Assembly (NCBI GenBank): GCA_018238545.1
Contig: JABCTC010000023.1
Coordinates: 1-53,817 of the forward strand
Reading direction: 5' to 3'
DNA from: Candidatus Heimdallarchaeota archaeon
GTDB lineage: Archaea > Asgardarchaeota > Heimdallarchaeia > Heimdallarchaeales > Heimdallarchaeaceae
Length of the DNA: 53,817 nt
A program made the translations under genes and the position numbers. Position 1 is the stretch's first letter. Each line of letters begins with the position of its first letter. This document shows positions 3,099 through 18,513 of the stretch, one piece after another. Below the pieces are notes generated by a model, which was not told the origin of the DNA, did no database searches, and saw nothing but the letters and a program-made list of their open reading frames with translations.

Positions 3099-3821
3099 AT
3101 GATGAATACTATAAATGAACTTACAGAAATAAACCTAAAAAACAAAGTTTTACTTCAAGCTTTTAGCGGGAGTGGAGCTATTGGAACGTTACTCACAGCA
3201 TTTTTAACAAAATCTTTAGAAATGGAACAAGTAGCCGTTTTACACCCAAAGAATGTTGCTCCTGTTGCAATTGTAAAGAAAGGGAAAATAGAGAACCCAA
3301 TAAGGATTTTTCAGTCAGAACAATTTGCTCTAATGTCATGTGAAGTAAGTATACCATACGAAGAATTACCTGAGTTCCTAGAAATACTTGTAGATTTTTA
3401 TATCAAACAAGGTGTTTCATATATTGTTCCTGTAGGTGGACTTCCGATTTTCCAAAATCCCAATGGAGAATCAAAATGCGTCGGTGTATCAGCTGATGAT
3501 TCATCTCTAAAATTTCTAGAAGAGAAAGGTGTAGAGTTGTTAGATGAAGGAATAATCTATGGTTCAGTTGTAGAAACAATGGAATTGTGTCAAGCTAAAG
3601 GTTTCAAGAACTGTTTTTCACTGATGGCAGAATGTGATCCTAGTGTACCTTCTTACCAACCAACAAAAGAAATTCTCAAAGCTCTTGGTAAATTATTCGG
3701 GCTGGAATATGACGAAGAACAATATGAAGAAATTATTTCTGTCATAAAGAAAAGAATAGAAGAAAGTTCTAAATTAATTAGAGAAGAAACTATCGATAAA
3801 ACAAGAGAAAGCCATCTATGA
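3099..3821 (+). CDS. PAC2-family proteasome assembly chaperone-like protein
   Basis: AFSGSGAIG N-terminal motif, PIRIF, VGGLP, G.IYG pattern; typical length. Confidence 0.75.
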   Translation: MMNTINELTEINLKNKVLLQAFSGSGAIGTLLTAFLTKSLEMEQVAVLHPKNVAPVAIVKKGKIENPIRIFQSEQFALMSCEVSIPYEELPEFLEILVDFYIKQGVSYIVPVGGLPIFQNPNGESKCVGVSADDSSLKFLEEKGVELLDEGIIYGSVVETMELCQAKGFKNCFSLMAECDPSVPSYQPTKEILKALGKLFGLEYDEEQYEEIISVIKKRIEESSKLIREETIDKTRESHL

Positions 3822-3989: not shown

Positions 3990-4005
3990 GAAAAAAGTTT
4001 AAATA
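3990..4005 (+). promoter_or_regulatory. Archaeal BRE/TATA promoter for the downstream ncRNA
   Basis: GAAAAAAG followed by TTTAAATA (3998-4005); predicted start about 4028-4030; no credible CDS downstream on this strand. Confidence 0.6.
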
Positions 4006-4027: not shown

Positions 4028-4314
4028 GTTAGGGTAGTTCAAACAAGGCAGATAAAGGGGAACTGCAAACTGAACAGGAAGAGTAATCCGATGCTTAACC
4101 CCCTCAAGGGTGAACTCGGGAACAATGGTTGAACCCCTTTTTAAATGGTTTGAACCCCCATTGGGCTTAGATAAAGACCTCCTAAGTCCGAAATCCCCCA
4201 GAACCAGACTTAGTCTGGAATCAGAAGAATTTCTTCTGTCTGCCAGAACCCCAACCAAAAACCCAAAGCGTCGAGTAAGAATTTCCTTCCTGTTCAGGCA
4301 GAAATCCCTTTTTT
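4028..4314 (+). ncRNA. Structured ncRNA precursor with bulge-helix-bulge motif in a degenerate tRNA-Cys(GCA)-like frame; predicted 235-nt excised/circular RNA 4069-4303
   Basis: 12-bp perfect stem 4070-4081/4286-4297, 4-bp helix CTGC/GCAG with AAA bulges at 4067-4069 and 4302-4304, outer GGGG/TCCC-type stem, several inner hairpins with G-U pairs favouring the + strand, and a T6 run at the end. Confidence 0.7.
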
Positions 4315-4428: not shown

Positions 4429-4755
4429 CTAACTAACTCCTTCAGCTAGTAGTTCTCCTATCGCTTCTGTTGTCATGCTAAACACAGACAAGATTTCTTC
4501 CTTTGAGTGTAAAATTTCGTAAAGATTTTTAAGCTTCAAATCTTTACCTTTGGCATCTTTTAGAATGATTTCATATCCCAAACCTTTACCCAAATTTTTC
4601 TCATCATTAATCCAATCTTTTTGTTCATCAAAAAATTGTGAGAGAAAGCATTTGATACTATTCACATCATTAAGTTTGTAATGTGCTAATTCCAAACTCT
4701 TTTCCTTATTTTCGGTTAATATTTTGAAGATCAATTTCCAAGTCAAATTTTTCAC
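4429..4755 (-). CDS. Hypothetical protein
   Basis: 108-aa ORF with host-like composition; GTG start; no recognised motif. Confidence 0.6.
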   Translation of the reverse strand: MKNLTWKLIFKILTENKEKSLELAHYKLNDVNSIKCFLSQFFDEQKDWINDEKNLGKGLGYEIILKDAKGKDLKLKNLYEILHSKEEILSVFSMTTEAIGELLAEGVS

Positions 4756-4820: not shown

Positions 4821-6247
4821 TTTATGAATATGTTTTTGTCTTTTTGTCTTATTTGCTTGTAAAACTAGTAACATTTTAGTGATATTACGGGTGTTTTTAT
4901 AATGAACTCTGGGTCAACGAAAGATGGCAAAGGTACTGCGTGCAGAGCGTATAGAAGTGACGTATCATCCAGCATTAAGCAGAATCTGTCATCAAGCAAA
5001 AAATCTCCATAATCGAGCAAATTTTCTGATAAAAACCTCTTTGAAGCAAACAAGTACGCTTCTCTTTTACTATGATCTTGACAAACAGTTGAAACAGGAG
5101 GAGTGCTACAGAGTCCTTCCGGCTCATGTTGCACAACAGACGCTCAAACTCCTTTCTAGAACTTGGAAGAGCTATTTCCAAGCTAAACAAGAGTGGAAGA
5201 AGAAACCTACATTGTTTTTTGCCATGCCTAAACCACCTAGCTACAAAAAGAAAGATGGAGAAACAGTAGCCATCTTCACCAATCAACAAGCGAAGATAGT
5301 CAATGGATGGCTAGTGTTACCTAAAAAAGTGAAGTACACCTACAAGACAAGACTAACAGCTCAAGCAGAGCTAAGAGAAGTTAGAATCATTCCTCGAAGG
5401 ACACATTACACCCTTGAACTTGTTTATTTGAAGAGTATACCAAGTCTTAGGAAGAAGATGACCAGAAAAGGAGCGATAGATCTAGGGATGGACAACCTTG
5501 CCGCTTTCGTGGATAACCTCGGAGGAAGGCCGATTGTTATCAAAGATGCAGGGAAGGGGATAAAATCCATTACGCAATATTATTTGAAAGAACAGAAAAA
5601 ATTACAAACACAGTATAGTCAGCAGCAGAGAAAACAATTGCAATCGAATAATCGTCTGAAATATGGTCCAGCTTATTACAAACTCAAAGAAAAGTGGAGA
5701 AGAAAGCTAAATGATGCTATCCACAAATTAACCAAGTATCTGGTAGACTTGTGGGTCGAACGAGGGCTCCATGAAGTGGTAATAGGCTATAACCCGTTGT
5801 GGAAACAAGGAGTGCATTTCTGGAAGAAAACTACCCAGATGTTCGTCACCATTCCCTATCTAAAAATCATTGATGTGCTAAAATATAAAGGAGCTGAGCG
5901 AGGGATAAAAGTGGAGACCATCCCAGAAGAATACACTTCTAAAAGCAGTTTCCTGGATAATGAGTTCCCTAAAAAACGGAAAAAGTACAAGGGAAAAAGG
6001 ATTCACCGAGGGTTGTTCCGTTCTGCTGCTGGTCACTTGATCAATGCTGACGTTAATGCCGCATACAATATTCTGATAAAAAGCGATCCGAAAGCACTAC
6101 CTAAACGTAGTGTGAACGGGGTAGGAGGATACGTGATGTATCCACTAAGAGTGAGTATAGAGTGTCTTCGCCCCATATCATGACCTCTAAGCACGACATG
6201 TACCTAGCTTTGTCTAATAAGACAAGAAGACAAATAAGCATCATAAA
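4821..6247 (+). mobile_element. Non-autonomous TnpB-only insertion element bounded by imperfect inverted repeats
   Basis: Inverted repeats 4821-4853 and 6216-6247 flank a single tnpB; visibly higher GC than flanks; no transposase inside. Confidence 0.7.
4924..6183 (+). CDS. tnpB: RNA-guided endonuclease TnpB (IS200/IS605/IS607-associated), rearranged-RuvC type without zinc finger
   Basis: AKNLHNRANF, AQQTLK, GAIDLG, VVIGYN..WKQ, EEYTSKSSFLD, GKRIHRGLF, INADVNAAYNI. Confidence 0.92.
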   Translation: MAKVLRAERIEVTYHPALSRICHQAKNLHNRANFLIKTSLKQTSTLLFYYDLDKQLKQEECYRVLPAHVAQQTLKLLSRTWKSYFQAKQEWKKKPTLFFAMPKPPSYKKKDGETVAIFTNQQAKIVNGWLVLPKKVKYTYKTRLTAQAELREVRIIPRRTHYTLELVYLKSIPSLRKKMTRKGAIDLGMDNLAAFVDNLGGRPIVIKDAGKGIKSITQYYLKEQKKLQTQYSQQQRKQLQSNNRLKYGPAYYKLKEKWRRKLNDAIHKLTKYLVDLWVERGLHEVVIGYNPLWKQGVHFWKKTTQMFVTIPYLKIIDVLKYKGAERGIKVETIPEEYTSKSSFLDNEFPKKRKKYKGKRIHRGLFRSAAGHLINADVNAAYNILIKSDPKALPKRSVNGVGGYVMYPLRVSIECLRPIS

Positions 6248-9958: not shown

Positions 9959-11250
9959 CTTCTACGTGGGTAAGAACTTTTTCCTCCTTTCTTCTTAGGA
10001 TAGTATGGCTTCTTACCTTTCCCTTGTTTTCTATATTGTGGTTTAATTTGAGGACCTTTGTGTTGTCGAGGTTGGAATGATCTGTCAATAGGTGGTTTCT
10101 TTCCTTCTGGAGCTTCTTTGTATTTCTTTTTAATTTCCTCAACCTTTCTATCTACTTCCAATTTCAGCTGATCCCCAATAAATTCACCTTGAAAGAAATC
10201 AACTCTACCCGCGATTGTTAGCCGTCCTGCAATAGCTCTAGAGATATTTCCCCTCTGCCACCATGGACAACCATGAAGTTCAGGTATCTGGTAGATAATA
10301 CCATGTTTTGGTGGTTTAGCACCAGTTTTTAGAGCTCTAAACAGCGCTTTTTCTGCTCCTAACAATTGAATTGTTGATGCAGGTTTCATTGCTAATTCTC
10401 GAAGACCACCTGCAAGTGCTATTAATCTAGCAGCTATTGGCGCACCTACTATTGCTTTCATATTTGGTGCAATTCGTGAAATTTCTCTGCCTATCCAAGC
10501 TTCTAGTTTATCTCGTTCTTCATATAAATCGATCATACGAAGCGATAAATCTTGAAGTGGGTGCAAGTCATTTTCTGTAAAATTTGCTCCCATAGAATTT
10601 CTTGCAAGGTTTACAATACGCTTGCTTTTCTCATTTGAAAAACCAAATAATCTTACATTTTCTTCAGTGAAATTGTCTTTTGTACCAATTGTGGTTATTA
10701 TTTTACATAAAGTAAGATGATTTTGAACTTCTCTCATTATTTCAGGAAAATGAACTCCATACCATTCACTAATTCTGGCAGAAAATAGATTGGTGGTCTT
10801 ATCAATATCATCCATTGAAAGAATAGCGTGAACAACGTTTTTATCCACTCTCTGAGAACTGTGCGCTACACGTTTTTTAGAAAGACTAATACCAACCTCT
10901 CTTACCAATTCCTGATACTCTTTTTCATCTGAAATATAGTCCTGTTGAATTAAGTTGTGAAAAAGATTTGTAAGAAATTGTTTGTAAAACTCTGAATTAA
11001 CATTAACCTCCGATTTCTTGCCTTTACTTCGAACATAATTAACTACATCAGCGCTATTGGTTTCTATAATCTCTTCATCAATTTCCTTTAGTATCATTTG
11101 AAGTTCTTCTGAAATGGCGTAAACTGATAAATTGTGTATCTTAACAGCAATTTCTTCTGCTTTCTTAGGGTATGCAATGAATGTCTTCAACACATCATTT
11201 GAATCATAAACAAAGAAGCCAGCGACATTAACGTAAACTTTGATAGACAT
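9955..11250 (-). CDS. nop5: C/D box RNP protein Nop5 (Nop56/58)
   Basis: EWYGVHFPE, IAPN, PASTIQLLGAEKALF, PKHGIIYQ; basic tail; overlaps fibrillarin. Confidence 0.96.
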   Translation of the reverse strand: MSIKVYVNVAGFFVYDSNDVLKTFIAYPKKAEEIAVKIHNLSVYAISEELQMILKEIDEEIIETNSADVVNYVRSKGKKSEVNVNSEFYKQFLTNLFHNLIQQDYISDEKEYQELVREVGISLSKKRVAHSSQRVDKNVVHAILSMDDIDKTTNLFSARISEWYGVHFPEIMREVQNHLTLCKIITTIGTKDNFTEENVRLFGFSNEKSKRIVNLARNSMGANFTENDLHPLQDLSLRMIDLYEERDKLEAWIGREISRIAPNMKAIVGAPIAARLIALAGGLRELAMKPASTIQLLGAEKALFRALKTGAKPPKHGIIYQIPELHGCPWWQRGNISRAIAGRLTIAGRVDFFQGEFIGDQLKLEVDRKVEEIKKKYKEAPEGKKPPIDRSFQPRQHKGPQIKPQYRKQGKGKKPYYPKKKGGKSSYPRRR

Positions 11251-11321
11251 CTCTCTTCTTAAAACAAAGAAAAAAAGGAGATAAAAAAGATTTTGATAAT
11301 AAGGTGAATTTATTAATAATC

Positions 11322-11609
11322 TTAAGCAGTAATGGGTTGGTTAGTTTTTGTTTTAGTTATTAGATTCTCTAAAGATGTGTCCATTTCAGGATTTATACCA
11401 ATTAAAGCTGATCGCATATCTTCAAAGTTTGCTCTATTAACTAAAACTGTTCTGTCTAATAATTGTCTAACAGTGTAGCGAATAGCTCGAGGTTTTTTCT
11501 CGTATAAGCTTTCAATAATCTCTTTTTGAGTTAGTGCTCCTTTGTTTTTTAACAATTCAATCACTTCGAGTGATCCCTTTGGTAGTCTTTCTCTTTGCAT
11601 TTTTTTCAC
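11322..11609 (-). CDS. Small winged-helix (MarR-like) DNA-binding protein
   Basis: LLKNKGALTQKEI...RAIRYTVRQL..D.R pattern. Confidence 0.75.
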   Translation of the reverse strand: MKKMQRERLPKGSLEVIELLKNKGALTQKEIIESLYEKKPRAIRYTVRQLLDRTVLVNRANFEDMRSALIGINPEMDTSLENLITKTKTNQPITA

Positions 11610-11742
11610 TTTTTCCGTGTGTGTGATATATTCGCACTCTATGTGTAACTGGGACGCACACGTATATATAGTTTTTCTGTGCGGTAAGATGCACAGCCGT
11701 CAAGCTGCAAAATTTGCAAAAAAGAAGGGGAAAAACTTTAAT

Positions 11743-14658
11743 TTATTGCTTAGGGTGAACCTTGGAAAATCTAATTCTTAAAACTGGAACAAGAACAATG
11801 GTAACAAAAATAAATAAAATAATCCCTGTTGCTATCTGTTGAATTAATGGAAGTTGTTCCCACAATAAAACATTACAGAAGATTTCATTTCGTCCATCCG
11901 TTATAGTATGATTCACAAGTTCTAATGGGACATAAATCGTATGTAGACCATATTGTTCAAGAGTTACTGTTGTTTCGTATTTGAGATTCTGACCATTAAA
12001 CAGTAAAACAATGTGATTAAATGAGTTGTCTGGATGTAGAATAGTTGCATATACTCGATTGTCAGGTAATATGACCACTTCCCCATCCTTATCTTTTATG
12101 TTGATACCTATCCTAAACTGTTCTCGGATTAGAACCTCACTGTTTTCAGATTGTAAATTGATTGTAGGTCGATGTGTAGAAATTAACCAGTTAAATGTAT
12201 CATTAACAAGTTGAAGATTGTTTGAATCCTGTGCCAATACGTATCTATAACTTTTAGCTAAACCTACACGAAGAGGATTGAGTTCCATAGTATCTACAAT
12301 TAACCCTAAATCTGTAAATGGATATCCTGATCCAAACATTATTACTTTTCCTTGATCAATTACTGTAGATAATGCTGCATTGAACGATATTTCTGTCCCA
12401 TCAATCTCTGAATTGAAGGTGGCAACTACTTTGTTCTCAAGGTTTTCATCTGAAGTAAATCTTAGAGGCCATCCCCAGAATAGAAATGAATCAGTTGAAA
12501 TGAAATCGATGTCACTTTGAATGTTACCGTAATATGGAACATAATCAATTGGTACGGTGTTTCCTACACTTGCGTTAAATAATTCTAAAATCTGATTACA
12601 AGCATAATAATTGCTTGATAATATTGGATCATCTTCAACATTATCAACCTCAACAAATCTGTGACTATTAACTAGAAATAGTAAAGATCCTCCTGATGAA
12701 ATGAAGTCATATATAGTGTTCAACTCATCTACGGTATAATTTAGTTCAGGGTCAGAAATTACTAATATATCAGTATTATTTAATTTAAGTGAACCTTCCT
12801 TTTGATATGAAACGTGAAATCCTCTATCCTTTAGAACCCGCGAGGTAAAACTATGGGCTCCAAAAGGTGTTGAAGCATCAAACCAAATATTCTCTGTTGA
12901 ATTTTCATGAGATATATCAAATAAAACATTTCCACCATAGATTCTTGTTTGAATTTGAATATTCATCTTACTAGTTACACCATCATCATTTGTAAAATCA
13001 ATTGACGAGATAATGTTAGTAATTCTTTGTGTTAATGGTAAACTGATGTTAAATGAGATGTGGTTCCACCCTGCTGTAACATCAAAATAATCTGCTATTT
13101 GTATTTTACTGGTATACCTAGGGGCATTAGCATATATTCTTTGATCACTTGACGAGATGAGTTTAATCTTGAATTCTGTAGTCGTTCCTTCGACACATTC
13201 ATAAAAGTAGGTATTTTCAGGTGAGATTCGTCTAGGATTAATTGAAAAAACATCTAATGATTGTTTCTCATTTATATATTGGTAAGCTTCGTATGGATTG
13301 ATGATACCGTTACCTTGAGCTAATATCGGTGCATAAATATCATTAGCGGTTTCGAAGATCGCTGTTTCGAAAACATGAGAGTTTGAATCAGGGAATGCCT
13401 CCATTAACAGAGCAATAACACCTGCGACAATTGGTGCTGAAACTGATGTACCAGAAACATATCTTATACCACCATTTGATGCATCACTTCCACTAATAGA
13501 ATTACCAGGGGCAATAATATCAACACCAGCAGAGAAATTCATTGTTAATCCTCTAGAAGTATACACCGCTAGATTGTTTAGATTACTTGCAGCACCAACA
13601 GATATTACATAATCCCACAAAGCTGGTGCACCAGCTGAGTTCCCAGATGGACCATAATTGCCTGCAGAAGCAATTACTGGTATTCCTCTTCTCCCAGCTT
13701 CATACATTAATTCTTCAATTGGATCTCCAATTGCAGCAAAAGTTACAGAAGTTAAGCTTGCTGAGATAATATCAACATCTCGAAATATGGCGTATGTGAA
13801 ACCATCAATTAACCAAGCATCTTCACCAAAGCCAGTTTGATCTAGTACTTTAATATTAACAATACTCGCATCAGGTGCAATTCCATAATCATTAGTTTGA
13901 ATAACCCCTTGTCCTGAAGTATACTTACCATTGCCTGCGAGCACAGAAACGATATGTGTTCCATGACCACTCATATCTTGAATATCTTCAGACATATTTG
14001 CTGATACCCAAGCTGTTACAATCTTTTCTTCATCATAATGGAGAAGTGATTGTAGTGCAGGTGCAACAGAATTGTTCACTCCACTATCTAAAACTGCAAT
14101 GGTAATACCATATCCAAAGTAACCCTCGTTATGAATTCTATCAATTTCCAGCGCATGTCTGAGTTCTGATAGTTCTGTTTGACCTGATAATTCAATATCA
14201 ATATTCTGAGGAACTGAATATGAATTTGTTCCAATTGGATAGACGTACTTTATTCTGAAATCATCGAAATTTAGCTTCAGAATTTGATTTGAATTGTAAA
14301 TAATGGTTAGTGCTGGAATAACTTTGTTAATCTCTTCGATAAATAAACCATTTCTTGTTGCATATTCTTGAAAACTATTCCTTTCTTCAAAACTAAAAAA
14401 TGAAATAAATGCTCTATTGTTGAATTCCATTAATTTCGTTGCAACAGATTTAGAACTCATAGGTTCCTTCCATCTTTCTTCTAGCATGTTTGTTGCTATA
14501 CCTTTATCTAAGTTTGATTTTAGTAGGTTTGATAAATCTTCAAAATAACTGGGCATATCTTGCGAATTGTTAGTATTTTGTGCAACTACAGCGTTTAATG
14601 TACTAAATGGAAATAATAGTAAAATAAAAATTGAAAGGAACAATGGTTTTTTTTCCAT
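11743..14658 (-). CDS. Membrane-anchored S8 subtilase with site-1-protease-like domain architecture
   Basis: Signal peptide; triad VLDSG / GHGTH / SGTSVSAP; oxyanion AGNYG; later VLFDISH..ILVISDPE..GGSLL domain; C-terminal TM helix. Confidence 0.88.
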   Translation of the reverse strand: MEKKPLFLSIFILLLFPFSTLNAVVAQNTNNSQDMPSYFEDLSNLLKSNLDKGIATNMLEERWKEPMSSKSVATKLMEFNNRAFISFFSFEERNSFQEYATRNGLFIEEINKVIPALTIIYNSNQILKLNFDDFRIKYVYPIGTNSYSVPQNIDIELSGQTELSELRHALEIDRIHNEGYFGYGITIAVLDSGVNNSVAPALQSLLHYDEEKIVTAWVSANMSEDIQDMSGHGTHIVSVLAGNGKYTSGQGVIQTNDYGIAPDASIVNIKVLDQTGFGEDAWLIDGFTYAIFRDVDIISASLTSVTFAAIGDPIEELMYEAGRRGIPVIASAGNYGPSGNSAGAPALWDYVISVGAASNLNNLAVYTSRGLTMNFSAGVDIIAPGNSISGSDASNGGIRYVSGTSVSAPIVAGVIALLMEAFPDSNSHVFETAIFETANDIYAPILAQGNGIINPYEAYQYINEKQSLDVFSINPRRISPENTYFYECVEGTTTEFKIKLISSSDQRIYANAPRYTSKIQIADYFDVTAGWNHISFNISLPLTQRITNIISSIDFTNDDGVTSKMNIQIQTRIYGGNVLFDISHENSTENIWFDASTPFGAHSFTSRVLKDRGFHVSYQKEGSLKLNNTDILVISDPELNYTVDELNTIYDFISSGGSLLFLVNSHRFVEVDNVEDDPILSSNYYACNQILELFNASVGNTVPIDYVPYYGNIQSDIDFISTDSFLFWGWPLRFTSDENLENKVVATFNSEIDGTEISFNAALSTVIDQGKVIMFGSGYPFTDLGLIVDTMELNPLRVGLAKSYRYVLAQDSNNLQLVNDTFNWLISTHRPTINLQSENSEVLIREQFRIGINIKDKDGEVVILPDNRVYATILHPDNSFNHIVLLFNGQNLKYETTVTLEQYGLHTIYVPLELVNHTITDGRNEIFCNVLLWEQLPLIQQIATGIILFIFVTIVLVPVLRIRFSKVHPKQ

Positions 14659-14822
14659 ACATTAGAAATAAGCTTATTGCTTTTAGATATTTCTCTAGTA
14701 TTATATATATCTTCTAATTTATTGTCGGATGAATTACAACCCAGATGAAGTTTTTTTAATTGTCTTTCTAATGGAAACTCTTATATTTCAAAAATTTCGA
14801 TGACTTTTAAGGTGAAATAACA

Positions 14823-15218
14823 ATGCCCTCTCAATGGTTAAAAAGGTCCCGAAAGAAACTATCTGGTGGTTTAATTAGACAAGCAGCATCAAAGAAAAAA
14901 AGAGATTTGGGGCGTTATCCAGCAGAAACTCATATTGGTACAAGAAAACTCAAATCTATTAGAACAAGAGGTGGAAACAACAAACTCCGCGTTTTGAGAG
15001 ATGAGTTTGCTAATGTTTTAGATCAGTCAACAGGTATTTCACAAAAATCAAAAATTCTCAACGTTTTGGAAAACAAAGCTAATCGTGAATATGCAAGAAG
15101 ACGTATTATTACAAAGGGATGTGTTTTAGATACCGAACTTGGAAAAGTACGTGTCACAAGCAGACCTGGTCAGCATGGAATTATTAGTGGTGTTTTAGTA
15201 GATAAAAAAGAAGAGTAA
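14823..15218 (+). CDS. rps8e: 30S ribosomal protein eS8
   Basis: RTRGGNNKLR, IITKG, VTSRPGQHG. Confidence 0.97.
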   Translation: MPSQWLKRSRKKLSGGLIRQAASKKKRDLGRYPAETHIGTRKLKSIRTRGGNNKLRVLRDEFANVLDQSTGISQKSKILNVLENKANREYARRRIITKGCVLDTELGKVRVTSRPGQHGIISGVLVDKKEE

Positions 15219-15262
15219 CCTCTTCCAAATATTTTTAATAATTAATTCACAAAGGCTATATT

Positions 15263-15610
15263 ATGTTGCGGAAAACTCGCTCATTTGTTCTCTATCCAGA
15301 ATATTTTGATAAGAAGTTATCAAGGAAAGATGGTAGGAAAGTACCAAGAAGTAAAGCTGTTGAAGATTGCAAATTGTCAAAAATTGTTTACGCATGCAAA
15401 TATCTTGAATTGAATTACACGATTGAAAAAGACAAACAATATTCAAAGAATTGGTGGAAGAGCGAAGGAAGGGTTGTGGTTAATCCTGAAGGTATCGCTA
15501 ATAAAACTGAACTAATCAGAAAAATTACCAATGTTGCGAGAAAACTAAAAAGGGTTGAAAAGCCTACACAGAAGAAAACGAAGAACAAACCAAAGCAACC
15601 AAAAAAGTAA
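15263..15610 (+). CDS. srp19: Signal recognition particle 19 kDa protein
   Basis: LYPEYFD..SRKDGRKVP..AV; W...GRV; follows rps8e. Confidence 0.92.
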   Translation: MLRKTRSFVLYPEYFDKKLSRKDGRKVPRSKAVEDCKLSKIVYACKYLELNYTIEKDKQYSKNWWKSEGRVVVNPEGIANKTELIRKITNVARKLKRVEKPTQKKTKNKPKQPKK

Positions 15611-15646
15611 ATGTTACCAATAATCTGAATACTGGAGTTGTAAATT

Positions 15647-15961
15647 TTGGAACAGTCAAGAATAAAGAAACTAGGAAGAGTTTTACATAGAAGTGATTTA
15701 GGTCATGCTATCCTTAAAGATCCACCAAAATTACCCAAAATTGGATCAGATGTTGTTAATGAAAACATGGAACATATAGGCATTGTTAATGATATCTTTG
15801 GTCCGGTAAAGGAACCATATGTAAGCATCAGAGTGAAAGAGGCGTGGGACGAAAAAATTACATCTAACACAATGCTTTATGTTATTGATAAAAGAAGATC
15901 AGATGTAAGGCGAAGAAAAAGAAAAAGCTCGCCTAAACCTTACAACAAATCTAAGGAGTAG
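15647..15961 (+). CDS. gar1: H/ACA RNP protein Gar1
   Basis: LGRVLH, PKIG, IG.V.DIFGPVKEPYVSI. Confidence 0.92.
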   Translation: MEQSRIKKLGRVLHRSDLGHAILKDPPKLPKIGSDVVNENMEHIGIVNDIFGPVKEPYVSIRVKEAWDEKITSNTMLYVIDKRRSDVRRRKRKSSPKPYNKSKE

Positions 15962-16171
15962 TTTTTTTAAACATATATCCTTCCGTTTATGTCGGGTTTA
16001 TTTTTGACATTTTCTTGCTATTATTATGAAAGTTCGATTCAAATTTTTTTAGAACGGTATCAACACTTAAATACTGTAAAATGGAATGTATTATTTGAAG
16101 ATTTACAGTTTGAATTTGGGCTATTGTGTTGAGAAAACATTAGTACTTAGATTCGATATTTGTAATATGGT

Positions 16172-16636
16172 GTGATGAAGATGATCCCGACACAGAGGAT
16201 AAAAATTGTAAGGAACTATAGCAGTGCATTGGGGGATGAAATTATAGAGCTTATAGATCGTACATCAAACAAACAGTTACTATTTAGAGAAGTACTTGAT
16301 TTATTAGGTCAGCATGAATCAATCAAACATAAGATTGATGAATTACTTTATTCGAATATGATACTAAAAATCCCAATAAGAATTGGAAATGTTAAGGACT
16401 ATGTATTAACAATTCCGAAGAAGGAAGAAACAGGTTGGTTAACGCTGACATGTTCATGTTTTACATGTGACAGAACTGAAGAATGTGAGGTTAATAATCC
16501 TGTTAATCCAGTATCGTGTAGATCATTTAACGAATGGTTAATGGAAGAAGATGGAACAGAAAAAATTAGACCATTTAAATTCGTAGAATTTGACATCTTA
16601 GACGAAGATGAAAAAGTAAGAATTCCAATGAAATAG
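16172..16636 (+). CDS. Rpc34/TFE-beta-like protein (wHTH + C-terminal 4-Cys Fe-S motif)
   Basis: CFTC-x4-C-x7-P-x2-C-x4-EWL resembles the C-terminus of Pol III C34/RPC39 and archaeal TFE-beta; lies near gar1 and trm1. Confidence 0.78.
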   Translation: MMKMIPTQRIKIVRNYSSALGDEIIELIDRTSNKQLLFREVLDLLGQHESIKHKIDELLYSNMILKIPIRIGNVKDYVLTIPKKEETGWLTLTCSCFTCDRTEECEVNNPVNPVSCRSFNEWLMEEDGTEKIRPFKFVEFDILDEDEKVRIPMK

Positions 16637-16708
16637 TTTTTTTTTCTTGATAAGTAAGTCTTATCAATATCATTTTTTATTGTTCTTAAAATAGAATAAA
16701 GTGGTATT

Positions 16709-17320
16709 GTGAAAGAAGATTTCTATTACCAAAAAGCAAGATCCATGGGATATCGATCTAGAGCTTCTTTTAAATTATTACAAATTAACAATAAGTTCAG
16801 TGTTTTTCGTAAAAGTCAAATCATTATAGATTTAGGTGCATCACCTGGAGGGTGGTCTCAGGTTGCTTCTCATCTTGTTGGGGGGAATGGTAAGGTGATT
16901 GCTATAGATAAAGCATACATCACTCCATTTAGAGAAAAAAACATTGAAATTTTGAATAAGGATATTCTAAATCGGAATCTCCCCACAATTATCTTGGAAA
17001 CTTATAGAAAGGTTGATGGATTAATATCAGATTGTTCACCTAACATATCTGGCGATTTTAGCAGAGATCATTCTATTCAGATATCCTTAGCTAGAAGAGC
17101 ATTAGCACTTACTCAATATCTACTCAAAGACGAAGGTTTTTTCATTTGTAAGCTGTTTCAAGGAACTGAATTACAAGAGTTCATTAAGGAAATGAAAGAG
17201 CATTTTAAGATTACAAAGTTGTATAAACCAGCTGCATCTAGAAAGAAAAGCGCAGAAATATATGTAGTAGGATTAAAATATACAGCTAGTAAAGGTTCTT
17301 CTGTAGAAATTGAGAAATAG
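16709..17320 (+). CDS. rlmE: 23S rRNA 2'-O-methyltransferase RlmE/FtsJ
   Basis: YRSRASFKL, DLGASPGGWSQ, SDCSPN.SG, KP.ASR..SAE.Y. Confidence 0.95.
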   Translation: MKEDFYYQKARSMGYRSRASFKLLQINNKFSVFRKSQIIIDLGASPGGWSQVASHLVGGNGKVIAIDKAYITPFREKNIEILNKDILNRNLPTIILETYRKVDGLISDCSPNISGDFSRDHSIQISLARRALALTQYLLKDEGFFICKLFQGTELQEFIKEMKEHFKITKLYKPAASRKKSAEIYVVGLKYTASKGSSVEIEK

Positions 17321-17331
17321 GAGTAGTCGCG

Positions 17332-18513
17332 ATGGAAATCTCTGAAGATTTGTGGCAGCAAGTAACAGAGGGTAGTACCTCTTTCTCAATATACGTAGAT
17401 GCTGATAGAATCTATGATGCTTCCGTTTTTTATAATCCTAAAATGGCAATCAATAGAGATCTCACATTACTGATTCTATCTTCAATCATTAAAATAGAAA
17501 AGAAACGAATTTGCTTCCTAGATCCATTTGCAGGAACTGGAGTTCGAAGTTACCGGATTATAACTGAATTGCCTCAAGATTCTGTAGAAAAAGTTGTTGC
17601 AGGAGACATTAATCCTATAGCCGTTAATATTATTACTAGAAATTCAAACAACTTGAATTATGATGAAATATTGGAAATTAGACACTCGAATGCAATTGAT
17701 ATTCTTGATTCTTTGCCGAAAAAGAAAGACACGGTTCATATTATTGATTTAGATCCCTTTGGGTCACCTATTGAGTATATAGAAGAATCACTACGATCTT
17801 TACGAATAAATGAAGGATATCTTTTTGCAACAGCAACAGATTTACAAGTGCTATGTGGTAAGTTCCCAGATTCATGTTATCGAATTTACAACGCTATTCC
17901 AACTCGATATTTTCTATGTCACGAAGTTGCATTACGAATTTTGGTCTATAATATGATAATTAGTGCTGGGAGATTAGGATTAGCTGTGGAACCTATTCTT
18001 TGTTATAATCACGAACATTATCTAAGAGTTAAGGTTAAGGTAAAAGAAAGTAAAGAAGTTGCTAACCAACAGCATAAAAAACTGGGATTTGTATATTTTT
18101 GTAAGAAATGTTCCTATATAGAAACAGTAGAATTATCTGATGATTTAGTGGACGCTTCATGCACTAACTGTTCTGAAAAGCTAGAAAAGGCAGGACCATT
18201 GTGGCTTGGGAACCTTTATAATATTGAGTTTATTGAACAAATGAAAAAGGATATTGGGCAGCTTACATTACATCATGAGAAGAAGATTGAGAAAGTACTA
18301 AGTTTAATTCTGGGTGAAATTAACTCCCCTCCTTTCTTCTACTATATTCCGTTTATTCTTCGTTTCTGTAAGAAAGAAGGGATATCCTTAAACCAAATCA
18401 TTGATTCATTAAGATCAAAAGGATTTCTAGTTTCTAGAACTATATTTGATCCTCAAGGACTAAAAACAAATGCGTCATATAATGAAATAGTAACTGTAAT
18501 AAAGCAATATTAG
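17332..18513 (+). CDS. trm1: tRNA (guanine26-N2)-dimethyltransferase Trm1
   Basis: VFYNPKM..NRD, GTGVR, IDLDPFGSP, TATD, GPLWLG, KTNA. Confidence 0.95.
   Translation: MEISEDLWQQVTEGSTSFSIYVDADRIYDASVFYNPKMAINRDLTLLILSSIIKIEKKRICFLDPFAGTGVRSYRIITELPQDSVEKVVAGDINPIAVNIITRNSNNLNYDEILEIRHSNAIDILDSLPKKKDTVHIIDLDPFGSPIEYIEESLRSLRINEGYLFATATDLQVLCGKFPDSCYRIYNAIPTRYFLCHEVALRILVYNMIISAGRLGLAVEPILCYNHEHYLRVKVKVKESKEVANQQHKKLGFVYFCKKCSYIETVELSDDLVDASCTNCSEKLEKAGPLWLGNLYNIEFIEQMKKDIGQLTLHHEKKIEKVLSLILGEINSPPFFYYIPFILRFCKKEGISLNQIIDSLRSKGFLVSRTIFDPQGLKTNASYNEIVTVIKQY

Follow-up and report, generated by a model that had tools for sequence, protein, structure and literature searches.

A family-wide, probably circular RNA of Heimdallarchaeaceae with a conserved copy of the 16S anti-Shine-Dalgarno sequence

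Background

What kind of RNA is encoded near position 4176 of contig JABCTC010000023.1, a stretch of 53,817 nucleotides (nt) from a Candidatus Heimdallarchaeota archaeon (assembly GCA_018238545.1, family Heimdallarchaeaceae) that we call the window, and what could its function be? An earlier note on this stretch had described a multi-hairpin RNA inside a predicted circle. It had proposed that the repeated GAACCC-like words of this RNA serve as a sponge for an RNA-binding protein, in the manner of CsrB and RsmZ, or else that the RNA pairs with G-rich targets. To our knowledge, few classes of non-coding RNA have been described in Asgard archaea beyond ribosomal RNA (rRNA), transfer RNA (tRNA), signal recognition particle (SRP) RNA and RNase P RNA. 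The sequence comparisons reported here indicate that this is a real, undescribed, family-wide archaeal RNA, which is probably circular and whose function we infer from its conserved parts.

Distribution of the RNA

The RNA has matches in 27 of the 29 other Heimdallarchaeaceae genomes, with all five genera represented, and it occurs in one full copy wherever the locus has been assembled. The close matches include the complete chromosomes of Ca. Heimdallarchaeum aukensis and endolithica. All statistics on the conserved core given below rest on 27 distinct homologues from five genera, whose 16S rRNAs are 87-92% identical.

In the other 52 genomes of the class, neither a sequence model, which was run over all 82 class genomes, nor a motif pattern gave a convincing match. 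The same is true of the eS30 neighbourhoods of 29 other genomes, and of a short structural model that was run over 150 genomes of the phylum and 38 chosen genomes. The weak distant matches that we inspected were coding DNA, antisense tRNA, or sequences without the flanking structure. Pattern scans of GTDB, metagenomes and viruses found full homologues only of the Heimdallarchaeum type. The restriction to the family holds for the genomes searched; a diverged form may have been missed. Rfam returned no meaningful match at gathering or E-value thresholds, and literature searches found no description of the RNA.

Secondary structure

On the plus strand, to which all coordinates of the RNA refer, the fold has an energy of -57.2 kcal/mol (z = -4.0), and none of 200 shuffled sequences folds as well. 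An RNA on the minus strand was rejected, since the fold of that strand is not better than its shuffles (z = -0.9) and the promoter lies on the plus strand.

Two helices are supported by compensatory changes. The outer one, P1, joins positions 4070-4081 to 4286-4297 over 12 bp; all 12 pairs are kept in 25 of the 27 homologues, and both sides have changed at seven positions. The inner one, P2, pairs 4088-4096 with 4266-4275 with one bulged base, and shows compensatory changes at three positions (U-A/A-U, G-C/A-U and C-G/U-A). P2 is what the earlier note had taken for the closing helix (4089-4096/4266-4273). The helix is real but it is not terminal, as the 12-bp helix and the processing motif described below lie outside the interval considered then. 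Likewise, the GAGTAA flanks of this helix are present at 4081 and 4273, but among the 27 homologues their occurrence on both strands is private to the window. The named words and helices are found where they had been placed, that is, CGATGCTT (4089-4096) with AAGCGTCG (4266-4273), the repeats at 4124 and 4144, and GACCTCCT (4176-4183). The proposed AATGG/CCATT hairpin, however, does not appear in the minimum-energy fold of the window, and its sequence is confined to a single genus, g1.

Inside P2, folds and alignment suggest that UGGUUG of the first repeat (4126-4137) pairs with CAACCA (4252-4257) and closes a multiway junction; it is followed by GAACCCC, which is mostly unpaired. The second repeat (4147-4159) begins with GGUUU, a candidate pseudoknot strand for AGACC (4175-4179), and continues with another GAACCCC strand. 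Hairpin P7 (4163-4189) carries the invariant GACCUCCU (4176-4183); its stem is 89.6% paired across the homologues, with covariation not above shuffles. The stretch 4204-4238 contains two exchangeable hairpins (4204-4218 and 4222-4238), the number and sequence of which differ between homologues, so that the gap between the two CAGAA elements on either side ranges from 22 to 74 nt. Additional hairpins have entered at several places, among them the boundary of GAA and the C-run, and the GAACC unit has undergone lineage-specific duplications. With 62 C and 46 G, the RNA has too few G for its C-runs to pair in cis. The structure would be a ring in which a rod, with P1 and P2 shown by covariation, holds a multiway junction, fixed C-rich strands and exchangeable hairpins.

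Promoter and predicted circularisation

The sequences around the RNA suggest how it is made. A B recognition element (BRE) and a TATA box (GAAAAAAG TTTAAATA, 3990-4005) form a predicted archaeal promoter; in 23 homologues the BRE/TATA columns are invariant or nearly so, while the leader behind them differs in sequence and length. The RNA itself is flanked by a canonical 3-4-3 bulge-helix-bulge (BHB) motif. In the predicted fold, the 5' half of the BHB (4057-4069) consists of an outer helix strand, the central helix strand CTGC (4063-4066) and the bulge AAA (4067-4069), with the predicted cut after 4068. The 3' strands of P2 and P1 and the 3' half of the BHB share the stretch 4266-4309, with GCAG at 4298-4301, a bulge at 4302-4304 and the predicted cut after 4303. 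From this geometry we predict a mature circular RNA of 235 nt (4069-4303); in the relatives, the predicted ring has 213-290 nt. A U-tract (4309-4314) is the likely transcription terminator, and T-rich tracts follow the BHB in most homologues.

The central helix of the BHB is fully paired in 27 of 27 homologues, with C-G, A-U and G-C swaps, and a strict genome-wide scan found no other BHB that encloses less than 700 nt. We also asked whether the flanks could be the exons of a degenerate tRNA-Cys gene, with the RNA as its intron. When joined, they vary among homologues and do not score as tRNA. Their junction looks like an anticodon loop with an invariant U at position 33, but the exons gave inconsistent low-threshold ARAGORN calls only and no match to a tRNA profile; a normal tRNA-Cys gene is also present in the genome of the window. 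The BHB is kept while the flanks diverge and give no tRNA score, from which we take the excised piece to be the conserved product.

Archaeal splicing chemistry at a BHB yields a circular product (PMC7714728; PMC4731332). The genome of the window encodes two EndA-family genes and RtcB, the latter in two nearly equal genes on contigs C65 and C21. Judging from the BHB, the tRNA-splicing enzymes probably excise the RNA and join its ends to form a ring. The RNA's own TATA promoter would yield a short precursor, whose BHB the splicing endonuclease would cut, and RtcB would join 4303 to 4069 to give the ring of 235 nt, the flanking pieces being disposable. As expected, the sequence of the ligated junction is absent from viral contigs.

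Conserved core

Which parts of the ring are conserved? The longest words common to all 27 homologues are CCCCAGAA, GACCTCCT, GAACCCC and CAGAACC, and GYCAGAA is universal as well. GACCUCCU is one of the two longest, and the other, CCCCAGAA, is an invariant linker (4196-4203) that starts 18-23 nt after the start of GACCUCCU. GYCAGAA is followed by a C-run (4242-4252), and in seven homologues a hairpin is inserted between the two. The conserved elements are distinct, position-fixed words and not interchangeable copies.

The last seven bases of GACCUCCU, ACCUCCU, are identical to the anti-Shine-Dalgarno (anti-SD) tail of 16S rRNA, a resemblance that the earlier note had already pointed out for the word near 4176. 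Does the host use Shine-Dalgarno (SD) sequences at all? It does: AGGAGG was counted 42 times at start sites against 6 in a control window, and GGAGG 80 times against 9. A pairing with the loop at -8 kcal/mol or better is available in 267 of 2742 crude start regions, compared with 120 control windows. ACCUCC is unpaired with a probability of 0.80, and opening ACCUCCU costs 0.4-5.6 kcal/mol, while the SD duplex yields -10.3 kcal/mol. The anti-SD motif is conserved in 27 of 27 homologues, lies in a loop and is cheap to open relative to the SD duplex. Within the hairpin, the partners of UCCU differ by genus, forming none, two or five pairs. As these partners differ between genera and the bases of UCCU do not, the hairpin does not explain the invariance of UCCU.

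In four of the five genera, GGU is found 28-29 nt before GACC; in the fifth, the distance is 45 nt, following a duplication. The fifth pair of this GGU/ACC candidate pseudoknot covaries across genera (U-A, U-A, A-U, A-U, G-U). It is possible that GGU pairs with GACC across P7, which would account for the invariant G in four genera, although the pairs are few.

We next consider the GAACCC-like words. Compared with 5000 dinucleotide shuffles, GAACCCC is clearly enriched (3 copies against 0.15, P = 0.0002), and so are GAACC (4 against 0.64, P = 0.002) and GAAC (6 against 1.3, P = 0.0006); CCCC alone is not (P = 0.26). The statement that the motifs sit in loops or linkers applies to three of the four GAACC copies, which are mostly open in the circular ensemble (0.78, 0.98 and 0.58), but not to the remaining one, which is paired (0.04). 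GAACTC, listed as a related word, is present in the window but in only 4 of the 27 homologues. As the motifs are enriched over shuffles and conservation extends from the terminal stem to internal motifs, neither of the outcomes that the earlier note had named as refuting was seen, and the description of a multi-hairpin RNA within the predicted circle stands.

Genomic context

In the window, the RNA gene is flanked by a PAC2-family gene (3099-3821) on one side and, on the other, by a small open reading frame (ORF) and tnpB, followed by an eS30-Elp3-HTH-fibrillarin-Nop5 cluster. In the relatives examined, the RNA gene has eS30-Elp3 on one side and an ABC solute-binding, PAC2 or amidohydrolase gene on the other. 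The window has two tnpB-type genes (4924-6183 and 22-1062), neither with an adjoining transposase; the former separates the RNA gene from eS30, a position that it does not occupy in the relatives examined.

In the genus g1, further copies of the last 35-50 nt of the RNA gene follow downstream, as many as six in one genome. Each copy carries the variant of its own genome, and 0.4-9 kb of variable genes lie between the copies. The window itself lacks a duplicate of the 3' end. The pattern resembles what repeated integration at the gene of a stable RNA would leave behind. tRNA genes are known as repeated integration sites. The cassette arrays, for example in genomes G001 and G004, contain genes for NosD-like beta-helix, helix-turn-helix (HTH) and membrane proteins, in blocks that are bounded by the 3'-end copies and vary in their left edges. 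A search for integrases at the arrays, tyrosine integrases included, gave none, and the 3'-end site was not found in any viral contig. A 108-amino-acid ORF of the window (4429-4755, minus strand) has no Pfam match; in G001, its homologue adjoins eS30-Elp3 at the distal end of the cassette array.

The rRNA genes of the genome have some features of their own. On contig C86, the 16S (10306-11816, minus strand) and 23S (14042-17457, plus strand) genes are divergently oriented. The processing stem of 23S contains a BHB; the predicted fold of the 16S stem does not. In the genome of the window and in two others (G024 and G001), the 3' end of 16S carries inserted, lineage-specific hairpins within or beside helix 45, immediately ahead of the anti-SD tail.

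Comparison with known RNAs

Several known systems resemble the RNA in part. The SRP RNA of Thermoproteus tenax is permuted and circular (PMC4731332). Like it, the Heimdall RNA would be a stand-alone stable RNA that is circularised by the tRNA splicing endonuclease, with the ring closed at the tip of a helix. Unlike it, the Heimdall RNA has no SRP match and no known linear ancestor, and a normal SRP RNA is encoded elsewhere in the genome. The archaeal BHB circles, such as tRNA and rRNA introns, pre-rRNA and the intron in the 5' untranslated region of HVO_1309 (PMC7714728), have the same excision signal and the same kind of circular product, which is here predicted. In our case, however, it is the excised piece that is conserved and not the exons, and there are no C/D boxes, reading frame or host gene.

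On the other hand, the NfeR1/cuckoo and AbcR1/2 small RNAs of Alphaproteobacteria share with the Heimdall RNA an ultraconserved anti-SD sequence in a hairpin loop and C-rich unpaired strands (10.1101/2025.11.14.688489). These RNAs are bacterial and linear, and have several redundant CCUCCUCCC loops (10.1101/2025.11.14.688489), whereas the Heimdall RNA would be an archaeal BHB ring that is closed by a long rod and has one, partly masked ACCUCCU site. With no repeated CCUCCUCCC hairpins and no Rfam match, it does not belong to the cuckoo/AbcR sequence family.

Could the RNA be a known RNA in disguise? Rfam finds no 5S rRNA in the genome of the window, which made the missing 5S an attractive identity until we found a circularly permuted 5S gene on another contig (C59:18-223); the locus itself has no Rfam match to 5S. 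In the permuted 5S genes, helix I is closed by a short loop. This permutation accounts for the failure to predict 5S in Ca. Heimdallarchaeum (PMC8813620). In one genome of the genus (G014, contig C117), a 5S gene is found in conventional order with a short insertion; it is possibly a binning contaminant. Archaeal SRP RNA was rejected as well, with no RF01857 match at the locus and the SRP RNA encoded on contig C124. An RNase P or MRP RNA was rejected, as the similarity is not above that of shuffles, there is no P4 3' strand in cis, and the RNase P RNA is encoded on contig C125. The RNase P RNAs of the family have a non-canonical P4, in which conserved region I (CR I) reads GAGGAAC(C/U)(U/A)CCUGA instead of GAGGAAAGUCC and the partner UCAGGGGU is found in 13 of 13.

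A Y RNA does not fit, as Ro60 (TROVE, PF05731) is found in 2 of 82 genomes, not including that of the window. A template RNA of a reverse transcriptase (telomerase, retron or DRT) was rejected too: PF00078 occurs in 3 of 30 family genomes, in none of them at the RNA locus. The genome of the window has one reverse transcriptase gene, on contig C110; such genes are rare within the family. A C/D or H/ACA guide RNA was dismissed since no box is among the words common to the homologues, and no complement to rRNA of at least 10 nt is conserved in position across the 16S or 23S of five or six genomes.

Possible functions

What, then, could the RNA do? We rank highest, with a probability of roughly one in three, a stable circular ribonucleoprotein (RNP) whose anti-SD loop base-pairs with ribosome-binding sites, by analogy with the NfeR1/cuckoo RNAs. 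The RNA may thus influence translation and would then be no simple sponge for a protein, and pairing with G-rich targets, the other option raised at the outset, is a plausible part of such an action. In this long-lived RNP, the two CAGAA linkers would bind protein, while the ACCUCCU loop would pair with the SD sequences of many mRNAs, competing for them or staging them for the 30S subunit. The stem of the loop or the GGU/ACC pseudoknot would partly mask it, and the masking could be a switch. A more specific form, in which a closed RNA with a free copy of the 16S anti-SD, gated by the pseudoknot, selects, stores or silences SD-led mRNAs in trans, is a possibility that we consider somewhat less likely than the general one.

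Several observations weigh against an action through SD pairing. ACCUCCU arises in 3-5% of shuffles of the C-rich RNA, so that the match to the 16S tail alone is modest, and the invariant G before it differs from the C of the 16S tail. None of the called start sites has AGGAGGUC, the sequence that would match the invariant G; no specific target stands out among the start regions, nor does any trans target that combines two motifs. The single anti-SD site is unlike the redundant sites of the cuckoo RNAs, and a regulator that has to be turned over would not usually be a closed ring. Finally, some members of the family have ACCUCCU as a strand of P4 in their RNase P RNA.

A close rival is a housekeeping structural RNP or a ribozyme-like fold, in which an H-type GGU/ACC pseudoknot spans P7, the C-rich and CAGAA strands serve for tertiary or protein contacts, and the likeness to the anti-SD is incidental. 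The fixed GGU-GACC spacing in four genera, the covarying fifth pair and the explanation of the invariant G in four genera all argue for such a fold, as do the fixed core with its insertable hairpins, the BHB processing in common with 23S rRNA, the use of the gene as an integration site like tRNA genes, and its place near eS30, Elp3, fibrillarin and Nop5. However, no more than three pairs of the pseudoknot are invariant, one genus having a G-G mismatch at the fourth, and the GGU of Ca. Heimdallarchaeum is also able to close the junction. A purely structural role leaves UCCU unexplained, and neither a partner protein nor a catalytic consensus was identified. It is unlikely, by comparison, that the loop mimics the 16S tail and binds a factor of the 16S 3' end (a Dim2/Pno1-type KH protein, Nob1 or a toxin RNase), thereby buffering the maturation of ribosomes or serving as a decoy. 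In the genome of the window, 11 nt are identical to the 16S end and its next bases; small KH-domain genes are present, and helix 45 of 16S has lineage-specific insertions in the family. Yet the GGAUC part of the tail, which is what Dim2-type proteins read, is not copied, and no co-occurring factor was shown.

The sponge of the earlier note, in which equivalent GAACC(C) sites would titrate one RNA-binding protein as CsrB does with CsrA, is a little less likely still. The enrichment of GAACC (P = 0.002), the three of four copies that are mostly open, the presence of at least one GAACCCC in 27 of 27 homologues and the lineage-specific duplications of the unit speak for it, and a multi-hairpin RNA with a repeated short word is indeed reminiscent of CsrB/RsmZ. 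Unlike these, the Heimdall RNA has no GGA loops, its loops and linkers being C-rich, and CsrA (PF02599) was found in none of five genomes, two of them complete. Homologues have one to four GAACC copies, with one sufficient in Ca. Heimdallarchaeum, inserted hairpins split the word, and the sites, rather than capping similar hairpins, lie in linkers whose invariant flanks are distinct; the CsrB/RsmZ type of multivalent sponge was therefore not borne out. We regard as very improbable a link to RNase P RNA, either as a decayed paralogue or as a partner that pairs with the P4 3' strand. It is true that UCAGGGGUA occurs in the P4 3' strand of 13 of 13 family members and 0 of 18 other genomes, that 9 of the 13 have ACCUCCU in the P4 5' strand, and that the RNA is limited to the same family. 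But the best profile hit has an E-value of 19, pairwise alignments are not above shuffles in eight genomes, a P4 3' strand is missing in cis and contig C125 encodes a complete RNase P RNA. Least likely of all is an antisense to tRNA T-arms that acts on unfolded tRNAs or fragments, GAACCC being the complement of GGGUUC. Complements of 8-10 nt to the T-arm of many tRNAs do exist, and GGGTTC is found in 16 of 42 tRNA calls; the longer complement, though, occurs in two genera only, a folded tRNA has the target in paired form, and no tRNA variable loop fully matches GACCUCCU.

Conclusions

The conservation across the family, the predicted processing in the manner of 23S rRNA and the apparent use as an integration site in one genus are marks of an important stable RNA. 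Its core is now defined as four short invariant elements and a candidate pseudoknot, which makes its function directly testable in vitro. If the more specific form of the preferred reading, a ring whose gated anti-SD copy acts in trans on SD-led mRNAs, is true, the RNA would be a circular, ribosome-mimicking regulator of translation, of a kind not described in archaea. Eukaryotes have lost the SD system; if the anti-SD loop works in trans, it would represent a new layer of translational control in their close relatives.
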